A stretch of 45,841 nt of DNA from a virus: the IMG/VR virus record IMGVR_UViG_3300005614_000017, positions 1-45,841 of that record. One strand, written 5' to 3'. A program made the position numbers and the translations under genes. Within the stretch, counting starts at the first letter, position 1, and the number at the start of each line of letters is the position of its first letter. Under the pieces are notes generated by a model. It searched no databases and was not told where the DNA came from. It saw only the letters and a list, made by a program, of their open reading frames with translations. This document shows, piece by piece, positions 7,605 to 44,626 of the stretch.

Positions 7605-7934
7605 ATGGAAGACAAGACGCTCGCCGATCCCAAGGCGAACAAGAATTGGCCGGCATGGCGCTATGGGCCGGACGGCAAGAGCGGCATTTTCGATCGCGAA
7701 GAGGACGTGCCGACCGGATGGACGGACCATCCCGACAACGTCGGCAAGACGGAGGCCGAAAAGCCGTCGACCAACGCTGACGGCGAGGAAATCGACAATT
7801 TCGGCGTGACGTGGAATGCCGACGTCAACACGCCGGACAAGAGCAAGACGAAGGGCGGCCTTTGGAAGCTGCTGCCCGGCAAGTCGCGTCCGGCGCCGGC
7901 CGAAGGTTTCCCGAAAGAGACTTTCGATCTTTAA
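7605..7934 (+). CDS. Hypothetical protein ending in ...ETFDL
   Basis: ATG at 7605 is preceded by AAAGGAGG; the track start at 7479 overlaps the previous gene. 109 aa, C-terminus FPKETFDL. Confidence 0.6.
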   Translation: MEDKTLADPKANKNWPAWRYGPDGKSGIFDREEDVPTGWTDHPDNVGKTEAEKPSTNADGEEIDNFGVTWNADVNTPDKSKTKGGLWKLLPGKSRPAPAEGFPKETFDL

Positions 7935-7959
7935 TTTCTGACGACAGGGGAGAGCTTCC

Positions 7960-8739
7960 GTGACTTTGGTATCTGACATCATCGTCCAGGCATTTCGCGA
8001 GAATAATATCTTGCCGCTTGGAAAGACGCCGACGGATGCGCAAAACACGGAAGCTCTTATCCTGTACAATGCGAATTTGAACAGTTTTTACGGAACGGAT
8101 GTCGGCGAGCATTTACAGGATTGGCCGCTTGGCGATTTCGGCCTCGATCCGGAAAATCCTCTCACGTCCTATTATCCGCTTTTCGATTATAGGTGCGTGC
8201 AAGGTCCGCGCATCAACTCGCGCCTGATCGCGACCAATCCACAAGCTATGTCAGTCGATTTTCCGTCTCGGGCTCAAGACGGCGCGCGCATGGCGATTAT
8301 CGATCCCTACGGCCGGCTGGCGAGCGCTCCTGTGACGCTCAACGGCAACGGACGGACGATCGAAGGCGCACCGACGCAGCTCATCAATACGGACAGTCAG
8401 CGGACGGTATGGATGTATCGAGCTGATCGCGGCGACTGGATGAAAATTTCACAGCTTACGCTAGCGGATGAAAATCCTTTTCCGCTCGAATTTGATCAAC
8501 TCATCTGGTGCCGTTTGGCCTTGAGGCTCAATCCGCGTTTCGGCCGCGCCATGGATGATCAGACGCGCGAAGTTCTTTCCGTCCTGAGCAGGGATTTCAA
8601 GGCGCGCTACATCAACTCTCAGCCGCTCGAACGTGATCAGGATATCGCGTGGCCGTTCATGAGCCGTCAGGGCTACGATACGGAGCGTGCTTTCACGTCG
8701 ACGCCGGCTTTCAATCGAGGGGACCCTTTCAGTGGTTGA
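7960..8739 (+). CDS. Hypothetical structural protein in the position of a P22 gp4-type head-completion/tail adaptor
   Basis: GTG start with GGGGAGAG RBS, 259 aa. The assignment rests on gene order only. Confidence 0.45.
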   Translation: MTLVSDIIVQAFRENNILPLGKTPTDAQNTEALILYNANLNSFYGTDVGEHLQDWPLGDFGLDPENPLTSYYPLFDYRCVQGPRINSRLIATNPQAMSVDFPSRAQDGARMAIIDPYGRLASAPVTLNGNGRTIEGAPTQLINTDSQRTVWMYRADRGDWMKISQLTLADENPFPLEFDQLIWCRLALRLNPRFGRAMDDQTREVLSVLSRDFKARYINSQPLERDQDIAWPFMSRQGYDTERAFTSTPAFNRGDPFSG

Positions 8740-9997
8740 TATTCCTCTCGGCCGCGCTGACTATGACCGTCGTGTCGCCAAGGAAGCGCGCATTCAGACA
8801 CGAAATCGCTTTTTCGAGCAGAACCCTGTTCTGAACGATCAGCAGACTGCACTTATTTCACGCCCCGGCATGAAGCGATATTTGTATGTTGGCGATGGCC
8901 CGATCCGCGCCGTCTATTCGCAGCCGGGCGACTTCAATGAAGCGCTTTTCGTAGTCAGCGGCACGGAATGGTATCGCGTCGATACAGACGGAACCGTGAC
9001 GCTGCTGATTGGCGGCCTCAACCCATCCGGCTCGCCCTCCATGGCCGCGACAGGAACGATTGGCGACGGAGTGAATGCCACGCCGGAATATCTTTTCATG
9101 GCAGATGGGCGCGATCTTTATCTGTACATGGAAAATTCCTACGCGATCGGCACTGTCTCAGGAACGCCTGCGAACGGCTATACGATCACACTTGGGACGA
9201 TCCATTATCAGTTTACGAACGCCAGCGTTGATGCCGGCACACCTGACGGAAGCGCTGCTCATCCTTGGCTAGTGGCCTTGGGAGCCAATGCTGCAGCGGC
9301 ATGGACGAATTTTGGCAACGCTGTTTCTGCGACAGGCATTGGCGGAACGGATTATTCGACGGCGCTTGCCGCAAATCCGGATGCACAGAAAATTGCGACA
9401 GGCGCGACGGCTGTCACCGTTCGAGCAAACACGGCTGGCGCGATCGGTGATATTACATCGACCAGCACAGGCGCCAATATCGCCTGGACGAATGCGACCT
9501 TGACGGGTGGCGGGACGCCGCAAGTGACGCAAGTCGAGATGCCCAACGATGTTGGAGCGATTTCTGTCGGCTATATCGCTTCATATGTCGTCGTGATCCC
9601 GGCACAGGTAACGGACTTCAACGGCCGATTTTATTGGATCGAGCCTGGAGAGACGACCGTCGATCCTCTCGATTTTGCCACGGCCGAACGCGCGCCAGAT
9701 CCGGTTTTTGCCGTTGTCGTGTTTGGGGACCAATTTTGGTTGCCGGGATCGAACACGACAGAAGTCTGGTATTTTACCGGAAATATTGATGCACCTGTCC
9801 AGAGACTGCAAGGCGTGGCCTTTGATCGAGGGACGTGGGAAGGTACGGCCATACAGGTCAAGGAAAGCATGATCATCGTGGACAGTGATGGAGGCGTTTT
9901 TCAGATCGCAGGAGGCCTTAACAGGATCTCAAATCCGTCGATCGAAGAACGCATTCGCAAGGCTATTGCATATCAGTCTTTCCGAAATATGCTTTAA
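8732..9997 (+). CDS. Putative P22 gp10-like tail hub / packaged-DNA stabilisation protein
   Basis: GTG at 8732 overlaps the upstream stop, with GAGGGGA upstream; the alternative start is GTG 8687. The N-terminal pattern (RPGMKRYLYVGDGPIRAVYS...ALFVVSGTEWYRVDTDGT) resembles gp10 from memory, and gene order agrees. Confidence 0.5.
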   Translation: MVDIPLGRADYDRRVAKEARIQTRNRFFEQNPVLNDQQTALISRPGMKRYLYVGDGPIRAVYSQPGDFNEALFVVSGTEWYRVDTDGTVTLLIGGLNPSGSPSMAATGTIGDGVNATPEYLFMADGRDLYLYMENSYAIGTVSGTPANGYTITLGTIHYQFTNASVDAGTPDGSAAHPWLVALGANAAAAWTNFGNAVSATGIGGTDYSTALAANPDAQKIATGATAVTVRANTAGAIGDITSTSTGANIAWTNATLTGGGTPQVTQVEMPNDVGAISVGYIASYVVVIPAQVTDFNGRFYWIEPGETTVDPLDFATAERAPDPVFAVVVFGDQFWLPGSNTTEVWYFTGNIDAPVQRLQGVAFDRGTWEGTAIQVKESMIIVDSDGGVFQIAGGLNRISNPSIEERIRKAIAYQSFRNML

Positions 9998-10008
9998 GGG
10001 GAAATATC

Positions 10009-11080: not shown

Positions 11081-11926
11081 ATGGCCGTTTCAGTAGGCAT
11101 CAATGCGGACCAAGGTTTTATCCTTGCGACCGTCCATCAATCGGCCGAACATGCGCATGTCGGTCAATTTTTTGCGCTTGCGCCGTTCAATGTTCCTTCG
11201 AAGAATGTAGCAGCGACACAAGCCGTATTTTCCATGACTGTGCGCTCGATCCATTCTGTTCGTGCGACACAGGCAAGTCAGTTTGTTGTCTGCAAAGGGC
11301 GCACGCAAAATCCGAATATTCGCGTATTTACATTCACGCTCGATGGACATGATTTTTATGTCCTTCGTCTCGGTGACACTGAAACGCTCATTTACGACGT
11401 TTATTCGCAGCAATGGATTGAATGGACGTCGAAGGATCTTCCGTTCTGGCGCGCGAACGTTGGCTGCAATTGGATCGGCGCACAGCAGCTTGCCTATCAA
11501 TACGGCTCTGACGTCGTTGTCGGTGACGATGTATGGGGGCTGCTTTATTTTCTGTCGCCAGAGCAGCCATACGACGACAGTCCTGATTATCTGAACCCTG
11601 CGCAACAGCTCGAATTTGAGCGTATTGTCATGGGGCAGATCATGGCAAACGGCCGGGAAGCTTTTCCTTGCTATGTCATGTTTTTGAGCGGGGATAATTA
11701 TGGCTTTTCTGCAAATGATTTTACGCCTTTCGTTCGTCTCGATTATTCTGACGATCAAGGCCAGAATTTCGACAGTGCCGATACAATCACTGCGCAGCCG
11801 GATACCGACGATTTCGACTATCGCTGGTATTCTCTTGGTCAAATCACAAATCCGGGCCGCCTTTTCCGTATCGTCGATAACGGAATTCTGACCCGGATTG
11901 ACAGTTTGCAGATGAACGATGAGTGA
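11081..11926 (+). CDS. Hypothetical tail/virion protein
   Basis: 281-aa ORF starting 1 nt after the previous stop. Confidence 0.6.
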
Positions 11927-12863
11927 CGACCGCTCCAATATCTCGCCGCTGCCGAGTAATCAGAAAATCGTCAACAACGATGGTACGCCGACGCTGTTCA
12001 TGATGCGTTGGGCGCAGCAGCGTTCGATTGATATTTCCCAAGGTATTACAGTCGAGCAGGCGACGGCCTTGATCGATCAATGGGCCGCGAACAGAAAAAT
12101 TAATACGACGACCGGCGAGTTAACTGGCGGCGGCGATCTCTCGGCCGATCTCACCCTTGGCCTTGCCGATACTGCCGTCGCCCCAGGCAGCTACACGAAT
12201 GCGAATATTACGGTCGACCAGAAAGGTCGCGTGACGGCAGCAGCGAACGGCTCTGGCGGTGGCGGCGGCGCGCCTTGGTGGCTGCAACCTCCTGCTGCTG
12301 CGAGTTTGTCGCTGGAAAGCGGCGTCGCGACGCAGCTCACGCTTGCCGACGATACTGATGCGGGTTTGTTGATTGATGGCGGCGCAGCGTCTGGAAGTGA
12401 TAATATTCGTGGAGCATATCGGACGCTTACGACGCCAACGGGAGATTGGGATTTTAAGGTTCGTCTGGACGTTATTTTAACGACGGCTAACTTTTCGTAT
12501 TTTGGGCTCTATATACATGACGGAATTGGCGGACGTATTGTTACGTTCAAGCAAGACAACACGCAAGCAGTTACGAATGATCGATTTAATAGCCTTAATA
12601 GCTTCTCAGGAGGCGCTACCGTAGGATATCAGCTATTTAATCGACCTATTCAATGGTTTCGTCTTACTAAAGTTGGTGGAAATATATCATATTATCTTAG
12701 TGCGGAAGGTAAGCAATGGGCACTGTTCGGCACTGAATCGATTACAGCATTTCTTGCAAATCCGCCCAACCGCGTAGGTATATTTTTCGGATATAACCGT
12801 TCGGGTACGCCAAATCTCGTAGGCTCCTGCCCGTATTTTTCGTTGACGGGTTCTGCCGTCTAA
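11919..12863 (+). CDS. Tail fibre / receptor-binding protein with a compositionally distinct C-terminal domain
   Basis: It overlaps the upstream gene by 8 nt. It carries a fibre-type motif ([43 protein letters not shown]). The C-terminal ~150 aa look like a jelly-roll/lectin fold and are encoded by DNA of about 37-47% GC. Confidence 0.6.
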
Positions 12864-12866
12864 GCC

Positions 12867-12894
12867 TTGACACGCCCTTCTGATTTCCGATAAA
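12867..12894 (+). promoter_or_regulatory. Candidate sigma70-type promoter (TTGACA-N16-GATAAA)
   Basis: TTGACA at 12867-12872 and GATAAA at 12889-12894, in the 112-nt gap after the fibre gene. Confidence 0.35.
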
Positions 12895-12975
12895 CCCTCG
12901 ACCAGCTCCCGCCGCCTGTGTGCGCCAATCCTATAGCCCCGCCGGGAATGCAGGGCATCCAGGGTTCAAAAGGCC

Positions 12976-13371
12976 ATGCAGGGGCAGGATTTCATCATTT
13001 CAGCGATCGACAATAGTCCGCTTAATCGCGGCATGTCAGGCGCTGCTATTCTCGACGATCCTGAAAATCATGTGATCGTCAGCGGTGAGGATATCTCACT
13101 ATTCGTAGGTGACGGATCAACGTCCTACGAAGTCCACTTCATCTATAAATCAAAAGGTCGTGAGGCGATTAAGGCGTCTCGCGCCGCTCTTGGTGAAATG
13201 TTCAAAGACGGTCTTGCCGACCTGATCTTTGGCCTTACGCCTTTGCATCTGCGCCACGCCCGAATGCATGCCAGACTAATCGGCGGCCGGAGCGGTGGCA
13301 TCCGTCAAACTGATAATGGGCCATGCGAACTGTTTGTCATGTCTCGCGAAATGTGGAAAGGTTCAAACTGA
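12976..13371 (+). CDS. Hypothetical protein, possibly N4 gp49 / Sf6 gp66-family-like
   Basis: 131-aa ORF. The segment GREAIKASRAALGEMF...IFGLTPLHLRHARMHARLIGG recalls that family from memory only. The RBS is weak. Confidence 0.45.
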   Translation: MQGQDFIISAIDNSPLNRGMSGAAILDDPENHVIVSGEDISLFVGDGSTSYEVHFIYKSKGREAIKASRAALGEMFKDGLADLIFGLTPLHLRHARMHARLIGGRSGGIRQTDNGPCELFVMSREMWKGSN

Positions 13372-14054
13372 TGTCGTTCCTGTCGCCGAAGCCGGCAAAG
13401 TCGTCCTCGACGTCTGGCAACGTCAATAACGCCTATATTAAATCTGCTTATGGCGGCCAGATCGGTCAAGGAACCGGCGCAAATAATATCCTGTCAACTC
13501 TACTGACGGGTCAAGGCGACACGGCGGGCGCGCAACAGGGCTATAACAATTATCTACAGAACGCCGGCTATGCTGGCGCGATGAAGCAATTGTCCCAAAA
13601 TCTGACAGGTCAGGGAGCTGCGTCGGGTCTTCTCAATTCGGGATCGACGACCAAGGCGCTGGGCAATTACGGTACGCAACTCAACAGCCAATATTACAAC
13701 AACTATCTGCAGCAGCTTTCCGGCCTGTCCGGGCTCGGGCTCCAGGCTGGCGGCCTCGTCGCCAATACCGGGCAGACGTCGAATAGCACTAGCTCAGGTG
13801 CGAGCCCGTCCACCCTTGGCTCGATCGCATCGACTGTGGGCGGCATCGCCTCGATCTTTTCCGACCGTCGACTTAAGACGGCAATCCGGAAGCTCGGAGA
13901 ATTTACAGACGGGCTCGGAAAATATTCCTTCCGCTACAAGTGGGGCGGCCCACGATACGTTGGGGTCATGGCCGATGAAGTGGCGAAACTCCGTCCGTGG
14001 GCGCTCGGGCCTGTCGTCGACGGTTTCGCGACCGTGAATTACGGAGCGCTGTAA
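13371..14054 (+). CDS. Q/N/G/S-rich protein with C-terminal S74-type intramolecular chaperone (auto-cleaving) domain
   Basis: ATG at 13371 shares one nucleotide with the upstream TGA stop (CTGATG). The hallmark motif is SIFSDRRLKTAIRKL, followed by YSFRYKWGGPRYVGVMADEV. Confidence 0.7.
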   Translation: MSFLSPKPAKSSSTSGNVNNAYIKSAYGGQIGQGTGANNILSTLLTGQGDTAGAQQGYNNYLQNAGYAGAMKQLSQNLTGQGAASGLLNSGSTTKALGNYGTQLNSQYYNNYLQQLSGLSGLGLQAGGLVANTGQTSNSTSSGASPSTLGSIASTVGGIASIFSDRRLKTAIRKLGEFTDGLGKYSFRYKWGGPRYVGVMADEVAKLRPWALGPVVDGFATVNYGAL

Positions 14055-14055
14055 T

Positions 14056-15558
14056 ATGGCTAGCAGCTTCGATCAGCTTTTTCCGTCCCTCGCCAATCCG
14101 GGAAATCTCGGCACGGCTCCCTACGATCCAGCACAGAGCGCATATTCACTTGGCATGCCGCAACAGCAGAATACAACCAACGTTCTGCAGACGCTTAATT
14201 CCGATATGGGCAATATGCAGCCTTCGCCGGCCGTGCAGGCTCCCGACGCCAGCGGTGGTAATTATCTGCAGCCGCAACAGCTCCCCGACGAGAGTGCGCC
14301 GGGCGGTAATATGCCTCGCAAGCGTTTGTCGCTGGTCGACACGATTGGCCGGATCTCTGACGTCTTGGCGAATGTAGGCGGCGCTCCGCAGCAATATCAG
14401 CCGTATCTTGATCAGCGCGTCAAGACTGCACAGGATCAGCAGGCCAGCGCGCTCGACAATCAGGCGAAGCAGGCCGATATTCGCCAGACGGGCGTCGCTA
14501 CCCAGGTCGCGCAGAACGGCATTGTCGGACAGTTTGCCAACGGTGTGAAAGCGGCAATCGCGGGCGGTGCTGATCCGCATCAAGCAATTGCGGCGACTGC
14601 GCAGGCCCTGAATGTGCCTCCGAACGTGGCGGCACTGTTCGGACAGCAGTACGATAAAAATCCGGCAATTCTGGACGCTTTTTCAGCGACGGACCCGAAC
14701 AAGGAAATTTACGGCACTCAGCCGATTTGGTTCACAGATCCGGCCACAGGGAAACAAGTCCTCGGGCAAGTCTCGAACAAGGGAAATTTCAAGCAAGTCG
14801 ATAGCGGTGGCCTCACGCCGGCTGACACGATCAAGACGGATAATTACGGCAACGTCTTGGTGACGCGAGGCGCCCATAGCGCTGCGCCGATCACAAGCCG
14901 TGTTATTCAGGGCAAGCTTGGCATGGATGAAGTCGCGACTGGCACGGACGCCAATGGCTCGCCGACGAAAGTTGCCGCCCTTCCCGGATCGACAGGCGCA
15001 CTCAATCAGCAGAAAACGCAAGGTGAGATTGCGAAAAATGCCGCACAGACGGCAGCGATTGATGCAAAAACTAACGGACCGAAATTGACTAAGGATGCGA
15101 CAAGCGCGCTTCGTTCTCTCGACAATATCGAGGCCGGATTTTCCGATCTTGATAAAATGCATGCGCTCGCCGGGCAGGACTTCGGTCTCGGCCGCACTGC
15201 GCTTGGTAATGAAGTCGGCGCATATTTCGGAAACTCTGCAGCGCAGAAACGGCTGGAAATCGCCAAGAATGTCAATTTGCTGCAGCAACAGCTTCTTAAA
15301 GCTCTTCCGGCAAGTGCAACTCGTTCGGTGACGGAGCAAAAAATTCTTTCGGCGAGCTTGCCTGATCCGAATAAGATGACGCTCAGCACAGCTCGCACGG
15401 TCATTAATCAGCTTCGGCAGGATTTCCTTGCCGGCGTTCAAGCAGCGGACGCTCCGCAAGCTGTGCCTGGGCAAGCTTCGCCGCGAACGATCAAGGCACC
15501 CGCTCAACCGCCCGTGGCTACAGTGCCTGGCGGCTGGAAAATTTCGGTGGTGAAATAA
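14056..15558 (+). CDS. Putative internal virion / ejection protein
   Basis: 500-aa Q/A-rich ORF between the S74 protein and the SLT protein. The assignment is by position. Confidence 0.55.
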   Translation: MASSFDQLFPSLANPGNLGTAPYDPAQSAYSLGMPQQQNTTNVLQTLNSDMGNMQPSPAVQAPDASGGNYLQPQQLPDESAPGGNMPRKRLSLVDTIGRISDVLANVGGAPQQYQPYLDQRVKTAQDQQASALDNQAKQADIRQTGVATQVAQNGIVGQFANGVKAAIAGGADPHQAIAATAQALNVPPNVAALFGQQYDKNPAILDAFSATDPNKEIYGTQPIWFTDPATGKQVLGQVSNKGNFKQVDSGGLTPADTIKTDNYGNVLVTRGAHSAAPITSRVIQGKLGMDEVATGTDANGSPTKVAALPGSTGALNQQKTQGEIAKNAAQTAAIDAKTNGPKLTKDATSALRSLDNIEAGFSDLDKMHALAGQDFGLGRTALGNEVGAYFGNSAAQKRLEIAKNVNLLQQQLLKALPASATRSVTEQKILSASLPDPNKMTLSTARTVINQLRQDFLAGVQAADAPQAVPGQASPRTIKAPAQPPVATVPGGWKISVVK

Positions 15559-15559
15559 A

Positions 15560-18454
15560 ATGCCAAAGTATCGCATTCAGACGCCAGACGGAAAAACTTT
15601 GCTGTATGACGTGCCGGACGGCGTAACTGCCGCCCAGGCCCTTGCGCATGCGCAGCAAAATTATAAGCCGCCGATGACGTCGGCAACCCGAAAAACTCCG
15701 GCAGTTCCTGTGCAAACTCGGCAGCAGGGCGTGCAGCAAGCAGCGCGTAATGCGCAGCCGGCACAGGACGGCGGCTTCTTCTCTGGCCTCAAGGATTTTG
15801 CTGCGTCTGCAGAAGCCGGCGCCAGTAAGGCACTTTACGGCATTCCCGATCGCGTCAAGGCTGCGCTGGACTATTACGGGCCGAAAGTCGGCGTCACGCC
15901 ACAAATGGCTCAACAGGGCTATGGCACGGAAAATTTCGGCAAAGGCAAAAGCTATCAAGATCAGCTCGCACTTGAACGGGCTGCAACGAATCAGCAGGCC
16001 AATCGCAGCGTTGCGGGTAATGTCCTCGGCACTGTCGCTTCCTCGATCGCGTCGGGCAGTGCGGAAGCTGCAGGCCTGAAAGCGGCCGGAGCCCGTCTTG
16101 CTGCGTCGAGCGGAAAAGTTGCACGCGGGGCCGGAAACGTGTTGCAGGCTTTGACGGATTTCAAGCGCGGGCAACCTGTAAGAAATGTCGGACGTGCTGC
16201 AGTCGTCGGCGGCGCGACAGGCGCGGCGCAGGCGGCAGGGCAGGGCGAAAGCCCGACTGTCGGCGCAGTGGCAGGCGCGGCAACGGCAGGCACTTTGCAA
16301 GGCCTCGGCACGGCTGCGAAGAAATTTCTTGTGCAGCCTGCAGCCGATATTCTTGGCCTTTCCAATGCCGGAAGCTATCTCAAGCGCTTCACGAACGCGA
16401 CGACGGCACAAATGCAGCAGCGTTTGGATGCTTTTCGTCAGCAGACGGGCGCAGAGCCTACGCTGTTCGAGCTGCTTCCGCTTGCTGACCGCAATAAACT
16501 GATTTCGAACACGGTTGCCGGCCGCGACCCTATCGTCGATCAGGTATCGAACGCGATCAAGGCGCGTGGGGCGAATGTCGGGCCGGAAATGCAGGATGTC
16601 GTCAACGCTGCGACAGGTCCGCAGAAAATTTTGACGCAACGTCAAATGGTGCGGGATCTTGCGACGGCGCGAGGCGGTGCGAACAGTCAACCTGTCGGGG
16701 ATCGCGGGGACGCCGCTTTGGCTTATCGCGCCTCGAACAGTCCGACCGATATGCAGACGTTTCGTCGAACGGAAGCCAATCTTATTATGGCGCCGCATGA
16801 CAATGCGCCCGTGGTGGATAATCTTGACGATCTTCTACCGCAGCATCCTGTCGCCAATACCGCGCCGGCCCGGCAAGTCCCTGTGACGAACCCGGAAACC
16901 GGACAGCCTTTGCTCGATCAGAATAATCAGCCCGTCATGCGGACTATTCCGGGCCAGACGACTTATTCCATGACGGAAAGTGATCCGGAAGTTTCGGCCG
17001 CTATTCGTTCGGTGAGCGGTTCGCTGCGTCGACGCCTGCAGGACGGTCAGCCGATCACCGTACAAGACGTGACAAATATGATTTCCGATCTTGGCGACGA
17101 TGCAGCGAAGGGCGGCATTGACGGCCGGAACGCAGCCAATGCGATCGACCATTTGACGGGCGTGCTGCAGCAGAACGTGCCGGACGCTGCCGATGCGGCT
17201 GCACGGATGCGACAGGCTTTTGCAGCGCGATCGCGCATGATTGAAGGAATGCAGGCAGGCAATAAGGGCGCACTGCGCGATGACATCCAAGTCGGCACCA
17301 ATCAGCGCCAGGGGCAGCTTGTGCGCAATGCGTTCGATAGCGAGGAAGGCGTTGCCGGTCGTCAGGTTGGGCAAACGAATGCCTTGAATTCGGATCTCTC
17401 GACGACACCCAACAAGGCTCTCGCGACCACAATCGACATTGCCCGCGGAGGCCAGCCTGCACTTGCTGAAAATCTCGGGCAAAATGCGGCTGACCAGATT
17501 TCTCAGGCGGCTGGTGCACAGGCGAACAGCGCAGAAGCGTTGACGTCTGCCATGCGCTCGGCACAGAGCGGCCAAGGTAATGCCCTTTCTCCGGAAGATC
17601 TTGCTGGTGGCCTCTTGGCCTTGAGCCCCCATACTTTCGCCACGACGAAAGCGAAATTTATTAAAAATCTAGCTAACCATGTTTTTTTACCTGAAAATAA
17701 GGCAAGTCAGCTTGCGGATATGCTTTTTTCGCAAGATCCTCGCCAGACGCAGCTTGCAGTAAATTTGCTCAATCGCACGGACCAAGGCAAAGGGCTTCTG
17801 CAGTCGCTGAATATCGGGAATATCGTCGCGCCTCAACTGGCGCCGGATGCCTCTCCGCAGCCTGAGTTGCAGCAGGGTTCGGCACCGACTGAAACGCTCG
17901 GAATTCCGCCACAAACGGATGATTCGCAGCAGGGTTCGGCACCGCCCCAGGAACCGCAATCTGTGACGCCCGCGAGTGGCTATACGCTAATGTCGGCGCC
18001 CGGACCGGTCGATCCGTCGCAATCGCAATATATGCCGGCTCTGCAGCATATTTACGATAATGACGATCCGCAATTTCTGGATTTCGTCAACAAGCATCAA
18101 CAGCAGGAAAGCGGCGGAAAGCAATTTGGCAAAGACGGACAGCCGATACGGTCGAAAGCCGGTGCAGTCGGCATCATGCAGCTTATGCCGGCGACGGCGA
18201 AGGAAGCGGCGGCGCGTGCTGGCGTCCCTTATGACCCGATCGCTCTGGAATATGATCCGGCCTATAATAAGTTGCTCGGGACCGTGCATGTCGCGCATCT
18301 GCTGAATAAGTATGGCGGCGATACACAGAAGGCGTCGGCGGCTTATAATGCCGGCGAAGGCGCTGTGGATCGAGCGCTCGACGCCAACGGAAATCTTGTT
18401 ATGGGTGCATTGCCGGCAGAGACGCAGGGCTATGTGCCGAACGTGGCCGGATAA
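15560..18454 (+). CDS. Large internal virion protein with C-terminal lytic transglycosylase (SLT) domain
   Basis: 964 aa. The C-terminus has QQESGGKQF...AGAVGIMQLMPATAKEAA...AAYNAGEGAV, matching the SLT E-S / GxMQ / YNAG motifs. Confidence 0.8.
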   Translation: MPKYRIQTPDGKTLLYDVPDGVTAAQALAHAQQNYKPPMTSATRKTPAVPVQTRQQGVQQAARNAQPAQDGGFFSGLKDFAASAEAGASKALYGIPDRVKAALDYYGPKVGVTPQMAQQGYGTENFGKGKSYQDQLALERAATNQQANRSVAGNVLGTVASSIASGSAEAAGLKAAGARLAASSGKVARGAGNVLQALTDFKRGQPVRNVGRAAVVGGATGAAQAAGQGESPTVGAVAGAATAGTLQGLGTAAKKFLVQPAADILGLSNAGSYLKRFTNATTAQMQQRLDAFRQQTGAEPTLFELLPLADRNKLISNTVAGRDPIVDQVSNAIKARGANVGPEMQDVVNAATGPQKILTQRQMVRDLATARGGANSQPVGDRGDAALAYRASNSPTDMQTFRRTEANLIMAPHDNAPVVDNLDDLLPQHPVANTAPARQVPVTNPETGQPLLDQNNQPVMRTIPGQTTYSMTESDPEVSAAIRSVSGSLRRRLQDGQPITVQDVTNMISDLGDDAAKGGIDGRNAANAIDHLTGVLQQNVPDAADAAARMRQAFAARSRMIEGMQAGNKGALRDDIQVGTNQRQGQLVRNAFDSEEGVAGRQVGQTNALNSDLSTTPNKALATTIDIARGGQPALAENLGQNAADQISQAAGAQANSAEALTSAMRSAQSGQGNALSPEDLAGGLLALSPHTFATTKAKFIKNLANHVFLPENKASQLADMLFSQDPRQTQLAVNLLNRTDQGKGLLQSLNIGNIVAPQLAPDASPQPELQQGSAPTETLGIPPQTDDSQQGSAPPQEPQSVTPASGYTLMSAPGPVDPSQSQYMPALQHIYDNDDPQFLDFVNKHQQQESGGKQFGKDGQPIRSKAGAVGIMQLMPATAKEAAARAGVPYDPIALEYDPAYNKLLGTVHVAHLLNKYGGDTQKASAAYNAGEGAVDRALDANGNLVMGALPAETQGYVPNVAG

Positions 18455-18467
18455 GAAAGGAGTTGAC

Positions 18468-18635
18468 ATGAATTTTTGTGCACTGATCGCTGCTGCCATT
18501 CAGCAGGCGCCGACGCCGGAAATCGCTGCGACGCTGCAGACGATCCATGACGAGGCTTGCCCGAAAGGCAGTACTGTCGAGCCGCAGTCTGGCGGTGGCG
18601 GCGGCAATACTCCGCCGACCGGAGGTCACGGCTAA
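18468..18635 (+). CDS. Small hypothetical protein (55 aa)
   Basis: ATG at 18468 is preceded by AAAGGAG; the track start at 18312 overlaps the SLT gene. Confidence 0.45.
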   Translation: MNFCALIAAAIQQAPTPEIAATLQTIHDEACPKGSTVEPQSGGGGGNTPPTGGHG

Positions 18636-19169
18636 ATGATCCCGGCTTGGACTGCCCTTATTGCTTGTGTCGTTGTGCTTGTCTCAGCGGCCTTTGATGC
18701 ACAGGAAGAACGTAAGCGCGTTTTTCCTGCATCGATAGCTCTTGCGCTCAACTGGATTTGGTTTCAGTCTGCGTTTTGGGGGCAGTTCAAGCCGGCTCAA
18801 CTCATATTCGACGCCTTTAAAACAAGCGTCGATCCGATCGAGCTTTGGGGAGCGGGAGACGCCATTACGGCGATTTACGTTTTTACCAAAGCGCATGATC
18901 GTATGTGGGGGATCAGTCTCGTCGCTCTCTACATAGTCCAAATCGTCCTACATGCGACCTATGAGGTAGGGATATTCGACTATCCTCTCTATAACGGATG
19001 GCTCGACTTTACCTTTATAGTCGAAGTTGCGTGCTTATTCGCCGGGAGTAACGGGTGTGGACAGGCATCCAATATTATTCGCTGCTTGTCTTATCGCCTT
19101 AATTTTGGCGGGGTGCTGCGCATGGGCGATACTCATCAATCGCCTTACGCAGTGGACAACACGCAATGA
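18636..19169 (+). CDS. Polytopic membrane protein (holin or accessory membrane protein candidate)
   Basis: 177 aa with several hydrophobic segments (WTALIACVVVLVSAAF; IALALNWIWFQSAFW; ISLVALYIVQIVL; FTFIVEVACLFAG). Confidence 0.55.
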   Translation: MIPAWTALIACVVVLVSAAFDAQEERKRVFPASIALALNWIWFQSAFWGQFKPAQLIFDAFKTSVDPIELWGAGDAITAIYVFTKAHDRMWGISLVALYIVQIVLHATYEVGIFDYPLYNGWLDFTFIVEVACLFAGSNGCGQASNIIRCLSYRLNFGGVLRMGDTHQSPYAVDNTQ

Positions 19170-19648
19170 CGACGCTTGCCGACCTGATCAAGCTTGTCCC
19201 GTTTGTGGCAGTGTCGAGTGCGATCACATGGGGCGCCTCGCTCTATCGATTTCGCATGACGCAAAATGAAAAACGAACAGAAAAAACTGACAGGCTGGAA
19301 ATTCACCGCGATAAGCTAACGTTCGAGCTTCTCGAAAATGCACGTACCGAAGCAGCAATTCTCCGATCAGAATTGGACGAGCTGCGCAAAGAGACGAACA
19401 CGCTCCGGAAACTCGAACGGCATTTTTACCATTTCCAGCAATCGCTTGATCATTTGGAAGCTTTGTTGACAGCAACGACGCCGGAGGTTCGGGCGGATGC
19501 GGAACGTAACGCCCGCGCTTTCCTCAATAGAATGCGTCGCATAAACGAAGCGGAAGGGACGATCGCGAACGAAGTGCAGCGCGCGCAATCCGCAACGGAA
19601 TTGGGAATAACTGTTTTTAAGGGGCCAGACGATGTTCACGAAATTTAA
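19166..19648 (+). CDS. Membrane-anchored coiled-coil protein
   Basis: ATGA overlap with the upstream gene. An N-terminal TM segment (LVPFVAVSSAITWGASLY) is followed by a charged helical region. Confidence 0.55.
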   Translation: MTTLADLIKLVPFVAVSSAITWGASLYRFRMTQNEKRTEKTDRLEIHRDKLTFELLENARTEAAILRSELDELRKETNTLRKLERHFYHFQQSLDHLEALLTATTPEVRADAERNARAFLNRMRRINEAEGTIANEVQRAQSATELGITVFKGPDDVHEI

Positions 19649-19907
19649 GGATTGGGCGGACACGAAATTCGTTCCGTCCTGGCGCATGTGGTGGAAGCTC
19701 TGGACCATGCACCTTGGCGTCCTGGCGGCAGCGCTCGCGACCTATCTCACGGCTGTCCCGAACGCCATGCGGGATGCGCTCGATTCACTGCCGCCGTTCC
19801 TGCGCGATAGCATTCCGGCGTGGATCGGGCCGCTGCTGTTCGTGCTGCTATTCGTGGCGCGCTTCTGGAACCAGACGAAAGGGAATGAGCATGACGGACG
19901 GCCCTGA
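19632..19907 (+). CDS. Holin/pinholin candidate
   Basis: 91 aa with two hydrophobic helices and a charged C-terminus. It lies immediately upstream of, and overlaps, the SAR endolysin gene. Confidence 0.45.
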   Translation: MFTKFKDWADTKFVPSWRMWWKLWTMHLGVLAAALATYLTAVPNAMRDALDSLPPFLRDSIPAWIGPLLFVLLFVARFWNQTKGNEHDGRP

Positions 19908-21017: not shown

Positions 21018-21118
21018 AGGATACCGTCCAAACGACGACGTGAATTATCCACCACATAGCATTCCCTCCAACAGTATTTTTTGGTACCAGAAAATTACCA
21101 ACGAAGAAAGGACGTAAT

Positions 21119-27061: not shown

Positions 27062-27114
27062 ACATAAAAGTTGACGTAAGAATTTCGATCTATCACGCGC
27101 CGCGCAAATGTCAA
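27062..27114 (-). promoter_or_regulatory. Candidate promoter (TTGACA-N16-TAGATC) plus conserved TTACGTCAACTTTTATGT box, copy A
   Basis: -35 at 27109-27114 (contains the TGA stop of the upstream gene), -10 at 27087-27092, and the 18-nt box at 27062-27079, 7 nt after the -10. Confidence 0.45.
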
Positions 27115-33858: not shown

Positions 33859-35742
33859 TTAAAGATCAAACTCAATCGTCGGAATTTTCCATTGCGTGTC
33901 TGTTGGCCTTAACCAATGCAAATCATGCGATTTAAGTTGCTTCTGTACTATGCTGCGATCGAGGCCATGGATGCGCATCAATTCCTGCACTAGCACCGCA
34001 TGAGACATTTCACCGCCATTCTGATTGAGGACTGCCGTGATTTCTTCGCGGCTGGCCCAATCGTAGCGGGATTTCTCAGGTCCTTTCTTTTCGGCCGGCG
34101 CCTTGTCGCTGTGCGCCAGGACGATGGACTGCCCGACTTCCTTGACCTTAAGATAGCGGCTATCGTCGCCTACGTCAGCATCTTTTTGCTTCCGCACCGT
34201 CAGGATTGTCCCGTCTTGAACCTTTTTGGTCGCGATGACGAAATCCATGTTGGCGAACAGGGCTGACGAACCACGCGCGCCCTTGCTTTCATCCTTGCCG
34301 CTGTGATGGATAACCAGCACAGTGCATTCATAATAGCGCGAAAGCTGTTCCATGAAATTGGTAATTTTCGTCATGTCATTGGCGGAATTTTCATCCAGGC
34401 CCGTATTCAGGCGTGTTGCCGTGTCGATCACAATCAGGGCGGGACGGGCTTTCAGCTCTGCCAAGTCAGCTTTGATGTTTTCCCATTCTTGAATATCATT
34501 GAATGACGGAACGAAATCGAGGATGAAAAATCTGTTGTCGCCGAGAAATTCAATTCCTTGCCATTCATTCCAGGCGGGCCAGCGTTTCTTTGCCGTGGCG
34601 TTCGGTCCCTCGCCTGCCAGGAATAGAACGTCATTCTTGACCGGCGGCGCACTCCATTGCCCGGATATGCCGTTGGCTAGGCATAATGCCCAGTCGAGTG
34701 CCACGAAACTCTTGTAGGAGCCTGAGGCGCCGTACAGCATGCCGATGCCATTTGCCGGTACATATCCAGGCAAGAGCCATTCAGGATCGCGGGCGTTTTC
34801 GGCATATTCGGAAAGGGATTTTACCTTACTGCGTCGATTTCTCTCAGCCGTTGGCGCCGTCAATTCTGGCGTCTCGACACCGACGAAATGGGCGAATGCA
34901 TCTGCGTTGCTCTGGAAACCTTTTACGCCGTCCTTATCCTCTGCATAATTTGCAGCGTTGCGGACGATCGTTTCTAATTCCCATTCGTCCCAAGCCGGTT
35001 GACAGTGCGGGTTCCAGATTTCCCACAGCATATCGAATGCCATGGCGGGAGAAATCGCCTTGTCAAGAATGCTGGCTGCAACTTGGAACGCGAGATTATT
35101 GCCGCCCTTGCCCTCGATCGAGACGCGGCCGGATTTGACATAGCCTTCCAGCAGATCCTTGGCCCAGGCGATATTTCGCGGCTGATCATGCTCGGGATTG
35201 CGGTCGAGGCCTAGTGTGTCCGTCTTTTTTCGCTCAGGAATAATTGCTGAGATACATGCGGGAAGCGTCTCAAGATTTCCGCCCGGAAGCTCGCTATAAG
35301 TGCCTGCGCTTGTTCTTGATCCGGGTAAGAGGATATAACCGCCAGAGACAATCTTTCCGTTGCGTCGAATTCCTCCGCGCGTATCAATGCCGTCAGCAAT
35401 TCGCGATGCGGTGCTAGGGCCTTCTCCGCGAAAGTAAATATGGAGACCGCCGCGAGGTGTCCTAACCTGAAATGCTCGCGCAACGGCTTCTCTAATGACC
35501 GGATCGCGTTCGAGGAGCTTGCCCCACCAGTCAAGGCCATTGGGATCAACATCAATGACGAAGAGCCCGCTAGGGCCCGTCGCAACGGCCCAATTGAAAT
35601 CCGGGTTGACACGTTGCCACCTTTCGATTTGCGCAGGATCATTGGTGGCCTCATGCCATCCGTGCTTAGTCGCCGGATCCTTGCCTCCAGGCACGACCGG
35701 GAAAACTTTAGCACCTTTGAGAATATCAGGGAGCGTTAGCAC
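33859..35742 (-). CDS. Bifunctional primase-polymerase (prim-pol) / RecA-like (AAA_25, RepA-type) helicase, ending ...IEFDL
   Basis: The N-terminus (VFPVVPGGKDPATKHGWHEAT...LFVIDVDPNG...TPRGGLHIYF) fits prim-pol. The C-terminus (GMLYGASGSYKSF...ALIVIDTATRL...VLVIHHSGKDESKGARGSSAL) fits the RecA-like domain. Confidence 0.85.
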   Translation of the reverse strand: MLTLPDILKGAKVFPVVPGGKDPATKHGWHEATNDPAQIERWQRVNPDFNWAVATGPSGLFVIDVDPNGLDWWGKLLERDPVIREAVARAFQVRTPRGGLHIYFRGEGPSTASRIADGIDTRGGIRRNGKIVSGGYILLPGSRTSAGTYSELPGGNLETLPACISAIIPERKKTDTLGLDRNPEHDQPRNIAWAKDLLEGYVKSGRVSIEGKGGNNLAFQVAASILDKAISPAMAFDMLWEIWNPHCQPAWDEWELETIVRNAANYAEDKDGVKGFQSNADAFAHFVGVETPELTAPTAERNRRSKVKSLSEYAENARDPEWLLPGYVPANGIGMLYGASGSYKSFVALDWALCLANGISGQWSAPPVKNDVLFLAGEGPNATAKKRWPAWNEWQGIEFLGDNRFFILDFVPSFNDIQEWENIKADLAELKARPALIVIDTATRLNTGLDENSANDMTKITNFMEQLSRYYECTVLVIHHSGKDESKGARGSSALFANMDFVIATKKVQDGTILTVRKQKDADVGDDSRYLKVKEVGQSIVLAHSDKAPAEKKGPEKSRYDWASREEITAVLNQNGGEMSHAVLVQELMRIHGLDRSIVQKQLKSHDLHWLRPTDTQWKIPTIEFDL

Positions 35743-36177: not shown

Positions 36178-36309
36178 TTAATCTAAGGCACGATAATACC
36201 GCCAAGCCCCGCCGCGTGATTGCCTACGGAACAGGCTCGAATTCTCGAAGCCACCCAGCTCATACCATTCGCGCTTTGTGATGCGCTCTTTGCGAATTGT
36301 TTGTGCCAT
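36178..36309 (-). CDS. Possible mini-protein (43 aa), absent from the ORF track
   Basis: Hand translation: MAQTIRKERITKREWYELGGFENSSLFRRQSRGGAWRYYRALD, with TAATG coupling to the upstream stop. Confidence 0.35.
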   Translation of the reverse strand: MAQTIRKERITKREWYELGGFENSSLFRRQSRGGAWRYYRALD

Positions 36310-36584
36310 TACAAATCGTACTCCAAAAAGTTTGCGAGATAATGCGCTTGCATGAAAATCTTACAGCAAGCATCAAAAAAGGATATCCCGAGCATTTCCG
36401 CATAGATTTGAAAATCCCGGTGCTTTGCTGCTAGGTAATATTCTTTTCGTTCTGTGCGGCGCCATATCCATTTGGGCGGTTTGCGGTTTCTTTCGTCCGC
36501 TTCCTTAATCTCCTTTAAACTTTCTTTCAAAAGCTCTTTAGCGCCTCCGCGTGGCCTATAACCATTTGCATATTGCAGGGTCAT
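36309..36584 (-). CDS. Hypothetical protein ending ...LEYDL
   Basis: 91-aa ORF in the coupled early gene train. Confidence 0.55.
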   Translation of the reverse strand: MTLQYANGYRPRGGAKELLKESLKEIKEADERNRKPPKWIWRRTERKEYYLAAKHRDFQIYAEMLGISFFDACCKIFMQAHYLANFLEYDL

Positions 36585-37266: not shown

Positions 37267-37295
37267 GACGTAACGTCAAAGATCAAATTTGTCAA
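37267..37295 (-). promoter_or_regulatory. Candidate promoter TTGACA-N17-TACGTC
   Basis: -35 at 37290-37295 lies inside the codons PVDK of the upstream gene; -10 at 37267-37272. It overlaps the 13-bp palindrome TGACGT-N-ACGTCA. Confidence 0.5.
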
Positions 37296-38031
37296 CAGGA
37301 TTTTTCAGATCCTGCAGAAATTTCAGCACAGGCTCATACTTCATTTTTATCTGATAGCCGATAAATCCCGCCATCTTGCTCAAGTCGCCATCGTACATTT
37401 CCTTGGCGCGCTCGATCAGTCCGGCCGGAATATCCAGCTTGGCAGGCTTGTCAGCTCCTGGCACGTTGTAGACGATCACGTTGCCGCCTTCTTCCTCAAT
37501 CGTCTCGAACCATCCCGCCAGAAATCCACGGTGGCGCAATTTGTTGAAGACCGTTGCGACGCCACGCGCTCGCTCTTGCATAATCGCGGCCGGCAGGCTC
37601 AATAGCACGCGCACGGCAAGGTAATTGTGCCTGACAGGCTTCTGAGCGTCCGTTATGGTCTTTTTCACCCATACGGCGAGCGAGGCCCAATCTGTCTGCG
37701 ATGCCTCATCGGTCATAGCGGCTTCGATCCGCACTTCTGCATTGCGCAAGATTTCATCCTTTCCAATCATTCCCAAGCTCTCGAATTCCTCCAAAAGCTT
37801 GGCATCCATTTCGAAAAGGAAATTGCGCTGATCATCACTTGCATATTTATAAATCCATGCGAGCGTGCCGGCGCTAACGCGATTGCGTCGGACGGATCGA
37901 GCAACCTTTTCGAATTCCGCGTCAACGTCCAATTCGCCTTCATCCAGCTCGATCCCGACATAATCGAAAATCTGCTGAATTTTCTTGCGGTCGACGCCAA
38001 ACTTGACGCTCAATTCCAGTGCGCTTGCCAT
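37276..38031 (-). CDS. Hypothetical early protein ending ...DKFDL
   Basis: 251-aa ORF downstream of repeat copy 2. Confidence 0.65.
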   Translation of the reverse strand: MASALELSVKFGVDRKKIQQIFDYVGIELDEGELDVDAEFEKVARSVRRNRVSAGTLAWIYKYASDDQRNFLFEMDAKLLEEFESLGMIGKDEILRNAEVRIEAAMTDEASQTDWASLAVWVKKTITDAQKPVRHNYLAVRVLLSLPAAIMQERARGVATVFNKLRHRGFLAGWFETIEEEGGNVIVYNVPGADKPAKLDIPAGLIERAKEMYDGDLSKMAGFIGYQIKMKYEPVLKFLQDLKNPVDKFDL

Positions 38032-40175: not shown

Positions 40176-40397
40176 ATGAAGAAACGCCCTGCCACCCGAC
40201 GCTCGAACGTAACAGCCGCTGTCTACGACCCCGACAAGCGCACCCTAGACATCACCTTCCACAACGGACGAACCTACCGCTATCACGACGTCCCCGAAAA
40301 ACACGGCAACGGGATCATCGCCGCCGAAAGCCAGGGCTCCTATCTCCACCAGCATATCGCCAAGCATTTCGATTTTTCTGAATTGAAACCGGACTGA
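40176..40397 (+). CDS. KTSC domain protein
   Basis: ATG 40176 with GGAGGA 7 nt upstream. VTAAVYDPDKRTLDITFHNGRTYRYHDVPEKHGNGIIAAESQGSYLHQHI fits the KTSC pattern. Confidence 0.7.
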   Translation: MKKRPATRRSNVTAAVYDPDKRTLDITFHNGRTYRYHDVPEKHGNGIIAAESQGSYLHQHIAKHFDFSELKPD

Positions 40398-40587: not shown

Positions 40588-41346
40588 ATGAGCCATTTCA
40601 TTGAACATGCAGAACGGGAGCTTGCGCTATACGGTTCGGAAGGCCTTTATGGCGAGGACACCGGCAAAGCCGTGATGGAGCTAGTCCGTATTTTCGACGG
40701 GCAGCACCATTCAGGCGGTTCCGCCATGGTCGTCAGCCAAATTTTTATGAAGTTGGCAGGTTATGGAATTCTCACTCCGATTACGGACGAACCGGATCAA
40801 TGGGTCGATCATGGCGCCGGTATGTTTCAGCACAAACGGCTAAGCTCTGTGTTCAAAGACCATTCGGGTGCTTACGATATTGGCGGAATAATTTTCCGCG
40901 AACCGGATGGCGCAACCTACACCAGCAAGGATAGCCGTGTTCCTGTGGAATTTCCTTACACTCAGGTTCGAAAAATTGTTGACGTAGACGAAGGAGGAAA
41001 ACCTGTGAAAAACGAAATCCATCCCGCGCCCGGTGAATTCACGCCGGCCGAAATCGTACAGGACAATATCCTGCATTTCTTCCACTACTCACATTTGCCG
41101 CCGACGTTGCAGGCGACGTCCTCCCGGTTCTGCGGCATGGCCCGCTTCATCGTCGACACCCTGCCGCAAAATCCGGAACGCATGGTCGCTCTGCGCAAGC
41201 TGCTGGAAGCGAAGGACGCGGCAGTCCGAGCCAACGTCGGGCCGAAAATCCGGCGAGACGATCACGGCACTCCGATCGAACATGAAATCGGTGAAGTGCA
41301 TTCGCCGCGCAACGACCCCGACAAGCCCTTGACTTTCGACGACTGA
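40588..41346 (+). CDS. Hypothetical protein (ends ...LTFDD)
   Basis: 252-aa ORF with TAGGAGA RBS. Confidence 0.65.
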   Translation: MSHFIEHAERELALYGSEGLYGEDTGKAVMELVRIFDGQHHSGGSAMVVSQIFMKLAGYGILTPITDEPDQWVDHGAGMFQHKRLSSVFKDHSGAYDIGGIIFREPDGATYTSKDSRVPVEFPYTQVRKIVDVDEGGKPVKNEIHPAPGEFTPAEIVQDNILHFFHYSHLPPTLQATSSRFCGMARFIVDTLPQNPERMVALRKLLEAKDAAVRANVGPKIRRDDHGTPIEHEIGEVHSPRNDPDKPLTFDD

Positions 41347-43064: not shown

Positions 43065-43066
43065 TC

Positions 43067-43756: not shown

Positions 43757-43759
43757 TCG

Positions 43760-44116
43760 ATGTCGGACAGCAAGGATCTTGTACCGGTAATTCCGGCTGA
43801 AATTGCGTCAAAACTTGCGAAGATTCCCATGATCAGCGCAGAGCAATATCAGCACGTTGGCCGATATGCCGGTGCCACGGTCATGCACGTTCATGAGACG
43901 ATTGGCGGGGCAGCACGGTTCGCTGCCTGGGCGGACCATAACCCCACCGATTTCTATACCAAGATCTTTCCCAAGATGATCAGCCGATCGCAACATGTCG
44001 ATATTTCTGGCACGCTGACGATTGACGATGCGATCAACCGGCTTGAGGCGCAGCGCGACGTGCCGGAAGCAGATTTTGCGGAATTTGAGGATATTCCTCA
44101 AGATTACGATTTATAA
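43760..44116 (+). CDS. Hypothetical protein ending ...QDYDL (one of two small-terminase candidates by position)
   Basis: 118-aa ORF upstream of terL. No diagnostic motif. Confidence 0.5.
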   Translation: MSDSKDLVPVIPAEIASKLAKIPMISAEQYQHVGRYAGATVMHVHETIGGAARFAAWADHNPTDFYTKIFPKMISRSQHVDISGTLTIDDAINRLEAQRDVPEADFAEFEDIPQDYDL

Positions 44117-44129
44117 GGGAGATAAGCGG

Positions 44130-44357
44130 GTGAAAATAGAGCATAAGGGCGTGACAATCACGCATAGAGGATCTTGCATAGAAATTTCTGCTCCCAACGG
44201 ACAAAACACTTTTCACGTCCTGATTGAAAAAGTAAATGTTTCAAATCCCGTCGTCATTGACGCAGCAATCGATACGATGCTGAATGCGATGACAAATAAT
44301 TTCAAGCATAGAGCCACGATTGCTCTTGCGAAATTTTTGCAGGAGAAAAAATCATGA
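44130..44357 (+). CDS. Small hypothetical protein (75 aa)
   Basis: GTG 44130 with AAGGGAGA RBS. Confidence 0.5.
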   Translation: MKIEHKGVTITHRGSCIEISAPNGQNTFHVLIEKVNVSNPVVIDAAIDTMLNAMTNNFKHRATIALAKFLQEKKS

Positions 44358-44626
44358 TCCCGGTGGACGGATGGCTCCCAATGGAGCAGGCGCCACGCAA
44401 CGGCGATATCGTGCGCGTGAAATTTCGCGAACACAACAAGCCGGACGGCGCCGTGCGCGTGGCCTATGCGCAATGGGGCTGCGACGACAAGGGCGAAAAT
44501 TGGGGTTGGCGCAAGCCGCTCACGACCGGCACGACGCAATATGCCGACGCCTGGATGCCAAACCAGGATTTCCTTGTTCGAGCGCAGAGCGCAGTTCCTG
44601 CCGCAAATATGGAGTTCGATCTATGA
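44354..44626 (+). CDS. DUF551-like small protein ending ...MEFDL
   Basis: ATGA overlap. Sequence WLPMEQAPRNGDIVRV...WGWRKPL...ADAWMP. Confidence 0.55.
   Translation: MIPVDGWLPMEQAPRNGDIVRVKFREHNKPDGAVRVAYAQWGCDDKGENWGWRKPLTTGTTQYADAWMPNQDFLVRAQSAVPAANMEFDL

Follow-up and report, generated by a model that had tools for sequence, protein, structure and literature searches.

Short linear motifs are central to eukaryotic viruses, and they have barely been charted in phages. The textbook phage cases span two or three proteins, namely the C-terminal tails of T7 gp4 and gp2.5 and the clients of the T4 clamp; the latter, together with MuC of phage Mu, are phage proteins that work on a clamp platform. 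In the T7 replisome, a basic patch at the front of the polymerase binds both the gp2.5 tail and DTDF, the tail peptide of gp4 (PMC12339929). C-terminal docking tails on phage replisome proteins are thus already known. This article examines a case of much wider reach in the IMG/VR virus record IMGVR_UViG_3300005614_000017 (positions 1 to 45,841; this whole stretch of 45,841 nucleotides is called the window), which is the genome, complete or nearly so, of an uncultured P22-like phage. Ten of its predicted proteins end in Phe or Tyr followed by Asp and a C-terminal Leu ([FY]DL; in its general form, the xDL tail). A single three-residue tag, under strict selection, marks about 13% of the phage proteome and more than 30 unrelated families across the lineage. 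The novelty lies in a Leu-terminal tag of this breadth, and in sister lineages that carry other tags. Literature searches found no published description of an xDL motif, in agreement with the initial annotation of the window, which had not recognised it as a described one.

A peptide tag under selection

Translation of the window shows that all ten open reading frames (ORFs) singled out by the initial annotation do end in [FY]DL, followed by TAA or TGA. A six-frame scan independent of gene calls found 11 ORFs with this ending at a minimum length of 40 aa, i.e. the same ten and one antisense ORF, and the gene calls deposited in ENA for the source contig (metagenome assembly ERZ27252105 k141_6362936, 45,882 bp) agree on length for three of the carriers (627, 91 and 251 aa). 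The antisense ORF (13143-13301, minus strand; 52-53 aa) lies opposite a structural gene, ends in PFDL before a TAG stop, and is probably a chance match and no gene. An independent gene call based on codon usage yielded 75 genes, ten of them with the tail (about 1 in 7 proteins). With the window's own amino-acid composition, the probability that a given C-terminus reads [FY]DL is 3.2e-4, which corresponds to 0.024 expected cases in 75 genes; the binomial probability of at least ten is 8e-24. The tail is therefore, as first claimed, far beyond chance.

The excess is specific to the tripeptide followed by a stop, since 11 of the 14 sites that match the degenerate DNA pattern for [FY]DL (both strands, any frame) directly precede one. 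The core codons (TTC, TTT, TAC or TAT; GAT or GAC; CTT, CTA, CTG, TTG or TTA) differ at synonymous sites and at the second base that distinguishes Phe from Tyr, and nowhere else; the Leu codons are drawn from both Leu codon families. The signal thus sits in the peptide. A DNA-level motif is ruled out by this synonymous variation and by the lack of enrichment of the pattern away from stops (three sites), and the tail is selected at the peptide level. Two further ideas were discarded. Internal [FY]DL is absent from the 75 window proteins against 4.4 expected, but this depletion is not repeated in the 1,233 distinct predicted proteins of the lineage (observed/expected 0.85, like control tripeptides) and was treated as chance. 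Downstream of 27111, an inverted copy of the tail-coding DNA could pair into a hairpin, but this is not significant (z = +0.98).

Relatives of the phage include 12 IMG/VR loci whose primase-helicase is 64-85% identical. Each of the 11 loci that hold the replication block contains five to seven ORFs ending in [FY]DL, and the twelfth, a partial locus, contains two. In the lineage as a whole, 187 of the 1,233 proteins end in DL (74 YDL, 55 FDL, 43 LDL and 8 HDL). Proteins were clustered into families after the last eight residues had been cut off, and 33 of the 372 families bear the tail, most of them in an all-or-none fashion; sporadic gains occur among portals (4/58), SNF2 helicases (1/16) and the g66 family (4/25). 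Many families have acquired the tail independently. Its presence in 33 families, mostly all-or-none and behind diverging linkers, identifies it as a portable, selected peptide tag.

In its refined form, the motif consists of a linker rich in Pro, Ala and Lys, often a Glu, and then [Y/F/L/H]-D-L-COOH. Positions −12 to −6 are rich in Pro, Ala and Lys across the lineage, with Pro 3 to 5.6 fold enriched at −12, −10, −8, −7 and −6, which bears out the Pro-containing, flexible linker noted at the outset. Position −5 is Q, P, L or M (Q in 21%), Glu is the commonest residue at −4 (46%), and position −3 is Y, F or L in 94%. Although Asp −2 and Leu −1 are fixed by the way in which the 187 proteins were chosen, no YEL, YDI or similar conservative variant is found among the common C-termini of the lineage; both residues are therefore effectively invariant. 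Of the consensus [E/x]-[F/Y]-D-L proposed initially, the D-L-COOH terminus stands, whereas position −3 also admits Leu and His, and Glu falls short of half of all tails at −4. Preference for Phe or Tyr was considered as a sign of co-variation with a receptor, but the two are mixed in most genomes and give no usable signal.

Carriers, clade and sister lineages

The majority of the carriers are small proteins of the early, minus-strand block. Besides a primase-helicase with Prim-Pol and AAA_25 domains, this block includes the genes of a family-A DNA polymerase, an SNF2 helicase, a DUF2800 nuclease and a MerR-like protein; the replication module also holds a T7 gp2.5-like single-stranded DNA-binding protein (SSB; g36), and the structural genes include a P22-type portal and coat. 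Examples of the 12-16-residue tails are DTQWKIPTIEFDL, ETAKPMQEFDL and FEDIPQDYDL.

The primase-helicase, g48 (33859-35742, minus strand; 627 aa, domains assigned by Pfam), ends in ...WKIPTIEFDL, its tail beginning just 2-3 residues past a conserved W-x-[IL]-P element. Thirteen of 15 orthologues end in [FY]DL and the remaining two in EHDL; in the gene-called family, [Y/F/H]DL is found on 16/16 members. The tail of g44 (31485-31841, minus strand; 118 aa, ...KPMQEFDL), a protein with a MerR-type helix-turn-helix (Pfam MerR_1, E=1.8e-6), is kept by 14/15 orthologues in a tblastn extension and by 16/16 gene-called family members. The third well-sampled case is g71 (43760-44116, plus strand; 118 aa, ...DIPQDYDL), a helical protein encoded shortly upstream of the terminase gene. 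Among its best 120 homologues in the database (59-97% identical), 119 end in YDL or FDL while linker length and sequence vary, as would be expected if homologues keep the tail while their linkers diverge; 25/26 traced orthologues have the tail. The AlphaFold2 model of g71 has a mean pLDDT of 63, and residues 98-118 (mean about 57) show no regular secondary structure except a three-residue helical turn. An assignment of g71 as the small terminase subunit is unsupported by Pfam, PHROGs or Foldseek.

The remaining minus-strand carriers are smaller proteins for the most part. The GTG start of g32 (25377-25679; 100 aa, ...APEYDL) overlaps the stop of g33 (25676-26053; 125 aa, ...ETQEYDL); the two are paralogues in one BLAST family, of which 10/10 members are tailed, and the traced orthologues of g32 (3/3) and g33 (2/2) are tailed as well. 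The description of the carriers as otherwise unrelated thus holds for most of them, but not for this pair, and the label 'DUF551-like' attached to some carriers finds no support in Pfam. With a hydrophobic N-terminal helix and four Cys, g37 (27111-27311; 66 aa, ...TPRFDL) is a membrane mini-protein, and the single orthologue found has an identical tail. The family of g54 (37276-38031; 251 aa, ...PVDKFDL) ends in DL on 11/11 members (9 LDL, 2 FDL). The stop of g51 (36309-36584; 91 aa, ...NFLEYDL) overlaps the start of g50 (TAATG). This g50 (36178-36309, minus strand), a basic protein of 43 aa, is translationally coupled to its tail-bearing neighbour and is 77-79% identical in the two relatives compared (L013, L070), while the primase-helicase of L013 is just 55% identical.

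On the plus strand, g72 (44354-44626; 90 aa, ...ANMEFDL) has the tail in 5/5 orthologues and 7/7 family members. The structural-block protein g8 (7605-7934; 109 aa, ...PKETFDL) has its F-D-L codons at 7923-7931 and its stop at 7932-7934. Its family comprises 63 members, 45 of which end in DL (32 LDL, 5 HDL, 4 IDL and 2 FDL), and the traced orthologues chiefly have L/I/H-DL endings. A segment of g8, roughly G-x-[TP]-[WF]-[ND]...G-[LG]-W-[KR], is homologous to one in g41 (29004-29678, minus strand), whose N-terminus is hydrophobic and followed by a long low-complexity stretch; orthologues of g41 have a conserved ending AGI[ET]F[AE]G in place of xDL.

The tail is confined to one phage clade and is not common among phages. 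A pattern scan of IMG/VR for CAGGARTTYGAYCTNTGA returned 68 loci, and every locus with at least two tails carries the replication module of this lineage, so that no other phage group with clusters of QEFDL tails emerged from it. Such tails were not found in the nearest GenBank phage, nor in outgroup phages whose coat is 54-59% identical, several of them with sequence upstream to the terminase region. In HMMER searches with the primase-helicase, [FY]DL is restricted to the closest cluster representatives, at 40-49% identity; those under about 40% stop a few residues past W-x-[LI]-P, without DL. The divergent tailed loci L168-L170 possess the same module, and it is chiefly their primase-helicase and MerR-like protein that are tailed (GGFDL, GGYDL, GFFDL and EEWDL; on the MerR-like protein, GFFDL in L168 and EEWDL in L169).

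Sister lineages bear other shared tails. In L172-L174, where the primase is 36% and the portal 51% identical, a common tail D-x-[S/E]-x-F-COOH is present on four to five proteins per locus. Its carriers in all three loci are the primase-helicase, a gp2.5/Enc34-like SSB, a small protein and the homologue of g71; in L172 (JGI 3300078222, 38.4-kb contig), a DNA methylase bears it too. The g71 homologue ends in ...EIDLEQF in L173 and L174 and in ...DYDLSQF in L172, where YDL is followed by SQF, and the latter sequence links the two tail types. In L176 and L177, acidic tails with a terminal Phe are found on both the primase (..PEEF, ..SEEF) and the SSB (..PGAF, ..NDEF). In view of this T7-like arrangement, the xDL tail would most simply be a derived form of a T7-type replisome docking tail that later spread to many proteins.

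Close cultured relatives of the phage are lacking, in that blastn gave no match and tblastn no protein identity above about 36%. Relatives of its coat lie in five metagenome-assembled genomes, three of them from Sphingomonadales (uncultured Sphingomonadales bacterium, Erythrobacter and Porphyrobacter), and the isolate Sphingomonas segetis YJ09 contributes an outgroup relative, a contig of 47.2 kb; the loci with such hints are L162, L164, L165, L167 (genome collection) and L178. In one relative, a GcrA-domain protein adjoins the g71 homologue. The coat relatives and the GcrA-domain protein together indicate that the host is probably an alphaproteobacterium, by inference one of the Sphingomonadales; protein cluster names were uninformative in this respect. 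Elsewhere in the window, a KTSC-domain protein (40176-40397, plus strand; E=2.6e-19) adjoins a 252-aa protein (40588-41346, plus strand) that matches, in its N-terminal half, the anti-Thoeris inhibitor Tad3 (E=5e-29). The latter ends in ...LTFDD, which is near the tail, yet different.

A proposed docking tail, its candidate receptor and the alternatives

The reading preferred here, with a probability of about 0.5, is that xDL serves as a C-terminal docking peptide, an expanded T7-type tail that would recruit many phage proteins to one receptor. The initial annotation had likewise proposed a shared docking site; the T7-type tails on the primase-helicases and SSBs of sister lineages fit this idea, and no receptor was found. 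In such a scheme, a common pocket would grip the C-terminal Leu, free carboxylate included, along with the hydrophobic −3 residue and the acids of the tail, and the flexible Pro-rich linker would act as a tether. The ancestors of the tail would have been T7-like acidic, Phe-ended tails of the primase-helicase and the SSB, docking on the family-A polymerase. In this clade the tail of the primase-helicase would have turned into the xDL form, and the tag would then have spread to the MerR-like DNA-binding protein, the terminase-adjacent protein, the membrane mini-protein, the structural-block protein and many small proteins. Three points here are inferences: that the tails bind any protein, that the phage itself encodes the receptor, and that the tag serves to gather DNA-handling and regulatory proteins at the phage replisome.

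The best guess for the receptor, reached by elimination, is the family-A polymerase itself, g29 (22857-24908, minus strand; Pfam DNA_pol_A), whose C-terminus is a basic segment, ...RERKLRVKAEVESMMRYRK. This polymerase is never tailed, while other proteins of the module look like clients. Neither an acidic nor an aromatic tail is present on it in any lineage examined, and the C-termini of g29 orthologues are tail-free; in this lineage, the SSB and the exonuclease bear other acidic, aromatic-ended tails, and some members of the SNF2, portal and g8/g41 families bear the xDL tail itself. Two basic stretches, KKFRRH and RERKxRxK...RYRK (at about residues 595-607 and 661-683), occur in the polymerases of this lineage and are missing from those of lineages with other tails. 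In an alignment of 13 polymerases, KKFRRH as well as R667, R670 and K672 are specific to this lineage, and the last 15 residues carry a net charge of about +5 relative to other lineages. A T7-like patch could not be mapped by sequence, the solved structures being too distant. Pfam and PHROGs revealed no clamp gene among the roughly 50 window proteins scanned, with most of the tail/lysis block (11081-21583) outside the scan, and no peptide-binding domain or clamp was recognised among these proteins or in Protein Data Bank (PDB) sequence searches of g36, g41 and the polymerase.

The SSB, g36 (26318-27043, minus strand; phrog_112, E=2.8e-5), ends in ...EDVQAAF. The tails of its orthologues (..LDDDVPF, ..LDEEIPF, ..EAPAW and ..VQAAF) follow the pattern [DE]x[PA][FW] and are never DL; they form a second, separate class of C-terminal tails in the same module. 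Orthologues of the DUF2800 nuclease (27651-28886, minus strand) have a conserved C-terminus E-x-x-G-[F/W] (EEQGW, EEAGF, EQMGF), which may be a third docking tail.

A number of points weigh against docking on the polymerase by an expanded T7-type tail. The terminal residue is Leu here, whereas the Phe of T7 is essential. The SSB of the lineage keeps its other, aromatic-ended tail, so that xDL may use a different site or a different receptor. Polymerase docking leaves the tails of the membrane mini-protein, the structural-block protein, some portals and many small proteins not obviously explained, and the basic residues of the polymerase reflect a single evolutionary event and may be a phylogenetic coincidence. 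As for g71, Pfam and PHROGs gave no match and a Foldseek search against viral structures returned nothing with E below 4. Finally, the extended motif is not uniform: Glu occupies −4 in 80% of the tails whose stop overlaps the following start codon, compared with 13% and 52% for the other classes, and the GAR codon at this position often completes GGAG or AGGA 8-9 nt upstream of the overlapping start (e.g. at 25676-25690). Some of the extended motif may thus serve as a ribosome-binding site at the same time, or else the correlation may reflect a family effect.

A broader and more tentative extension of the docking reading is a proteome-wide address system, in which a lineage-specific C-terminal code would gather more than 10% of the proteins at one hub, itself encoded by the phage. 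The present lineage would use xDL as its code, one sister lineage D-x-S-x-F, and two further lineages [DE][DE]F or GAF, which may be the ancestral state. Clients would comprise the replicase, the regulator, the terminase-adjacent protein, a membrane anchor, sometimes the portal, and small proteins that perhaps act on the host. If this were true, replication, gene regulation and packaging would be physically coupled in a virus factory, and code and receptor would co-evolve, insulating co-infecting relatives from each other.

It is also conceivable, if rather unlikely, that the receptor is a host hub on which the phage proteins ride or for which they compete, such as the β sliding clamp, a reader of the SSB tip, or another component of the replisome or transcription machinery. 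The arrangement of many proteins on one receptor is that of clamp-binding motifs, and the pattern of E-F-D-L (acid, hydrophobic, x, hydrophobic-COOH) resembles two known motifs, the SSB tip D-I-P-F and the Pol IV tail V-L-G-L. Sister-lineage tails such as DLSQF and DTSIF resemble QL[SD]LF, and the tailed DNA methylase recalls clamp-tethered enzymes. A precedent is Mu, which is reported to use the host clamp for late transcription (PMC12867686). The sliding clamp, the candidate named first in the initial annotation, nevertheless fares poorly. The Gln that defines clamp motifs is not conserved, given its low share at −5 and a variable −6, and the combination of an invariant Asp −2 with Glu as the commonest residue at −4 is unlike QL[SD]LF or QLxLxL. 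A clamp would benefit the polymerase most, and that protein is tail-free. Bacteria share a conserved clamp pocket, yet the tail occurs in a single phage clade and takes other forms in sister lineages; co-evolution with a fast-evolving phage-encoded partner fits this pattern better than the host clamp does.

A degradation or chaperone tag, read by a host AAA+ protease, an adaptor or a phage factor, could bring about the timed turnover of mainly early proteins. The small size of most carriers and their place in the early minus-strand block would suit this role, as would the portability of the tail between unrelated proteins, and C-terminal tags with a free carboxylate, of which ssrA and MuA are the classic examples, are well-known bacterial degradation signals. 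However, Asp −2 and Glu −4 are unlike the non-polar termini of the ssrA type, and the primase-helicase, tailed in every family member, and some portals are poor candidates for programmed destruction. Moreover, the orthologous tails in sister lineages match the tail of their own SSB, which is the T7 docking arrangement. The suggestion of such a tag in the initial annotation is possible, but it is less parsimonious than docking and appears improbable.

Very improbable is a localisation or assembly address, by which carriers would be directed either to the procapsid or portal, to be packaged and co-injected, or to a phage factory at the membrane or cell pole, much as encapsulin cargo peptides and the T4 capsid-targeting sequence are read. 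The tailed structural-block family of g8, the sporadically tailed portals, the terminase-adjacent protein and the membrane mini-protein, a possible anchor, speak for it. Against it, a hexameric helicase of 627-aa subunits and ten protein species are unlikely to fit a 45-kb P22-like head, the carriers belong mostly to the replication and early block, and the outgroup phages with a related coat show no tails. A signal at gene ends that acts through the nucleotides or through translation (ribosome binding, coupling to the next gene, or a termination context) is essentially excluded for the core tripeptide: many stops do share bases with the following start (ATGA, GTGA), a GAR codon at −4 can create GGAG or AGGA before it, and Glu −4 is commoner where genes overlap, but the three core codons vary only synonymously or between Phe and Tyr, the core is kept in the g71 family where the next gene is far off, the pattern is not enriched away from stops, and neither the Pro-rich linker nor Leu codons from two codon families would be accounted for.

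If the preferred docking reading is correct and the tails do share one receptor, about ten function-unassigned proteins per genome would join one physical network, and replisome-centred recruitment in phages with a family-A polymerase would reach well past helicase and SSB. A peptide of 10-12 residues would offer a direct handle for pulling down the hub. Tables of C-terminal k-mers, compiled genome by genome, are a general method and could expose similar codes in other phages.

Comparison with known systems

Formally, the xDL tail also resembles class II PDZ ligands in its hydrophobic, x, hydrophobic-COOH pattern, and would resemble them in needing a free C-terminus. The bacterial PDZ proteins known so far lie mostly in the periplasm, and neither a PDZ nor a TPR domain was found in the window proteins scanned. 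The degradation signals of ssrA and MuA differ in character, being non-polar and LAA-like or basic and RRKKAI-like, whereas here Asp −2 is invariant and Glu −4 common.

Clamp-binding motifs (QL[SD]LF and QLxLxL, and the tails of gp43, gp33 and gp55 that bind gp45 in T4 and RB69) share with xDL the principle that unrelated proteins reach one pocket through a short hydrophobic/acidic peptide, often at the C-terminus; in the T4 system, replication is in this way coupled with late transcription. In contrast, the xDL tail has no conserved Gln, has A, P or K at −6 and an invariant Asp at −2, and belongs to one clade only. The tip of bacterial SSB (DDDIPF) likewise presents an acidic, hydrophobic, x, hydrophobic-COOH sequence on a disordered linker, and the gp2.5-like SSB family of the window includes true tip-like tails, DDDVPF and DEEIPF. 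The logic of the two is reversed, however: one tail serves many receptors there, while here many proteins share one tail. The sequences differ as well (IPF against [FY]DL), and xDL lacks the P-F ending and is not found on the SSB.

The closest likeness is to the T7 replisome. The gene set is the same, with a family-A polymerase, a primase-helicase and a gp2.5-like SSB. In both systems, an acid-containing tail sits at the extreme C-terminus past a flexible segment, the helicase-primase included, and several proteins bear the same tail; in the sister lineages, both primase and SSB have Phe-ended acidic tails (the same tail on both in L172-L174, L176 and L177). The differences are equally clear. 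In place of the C-terminal Phe of T7, the tail examined here ends in Leu, with an aromatic residue or Leu at −3, and the SSB of this lineage is without it. Where T7 has two carriers, this phage lineage has about ten per genome, drawn from more than 30 families that include non-replication proteins.

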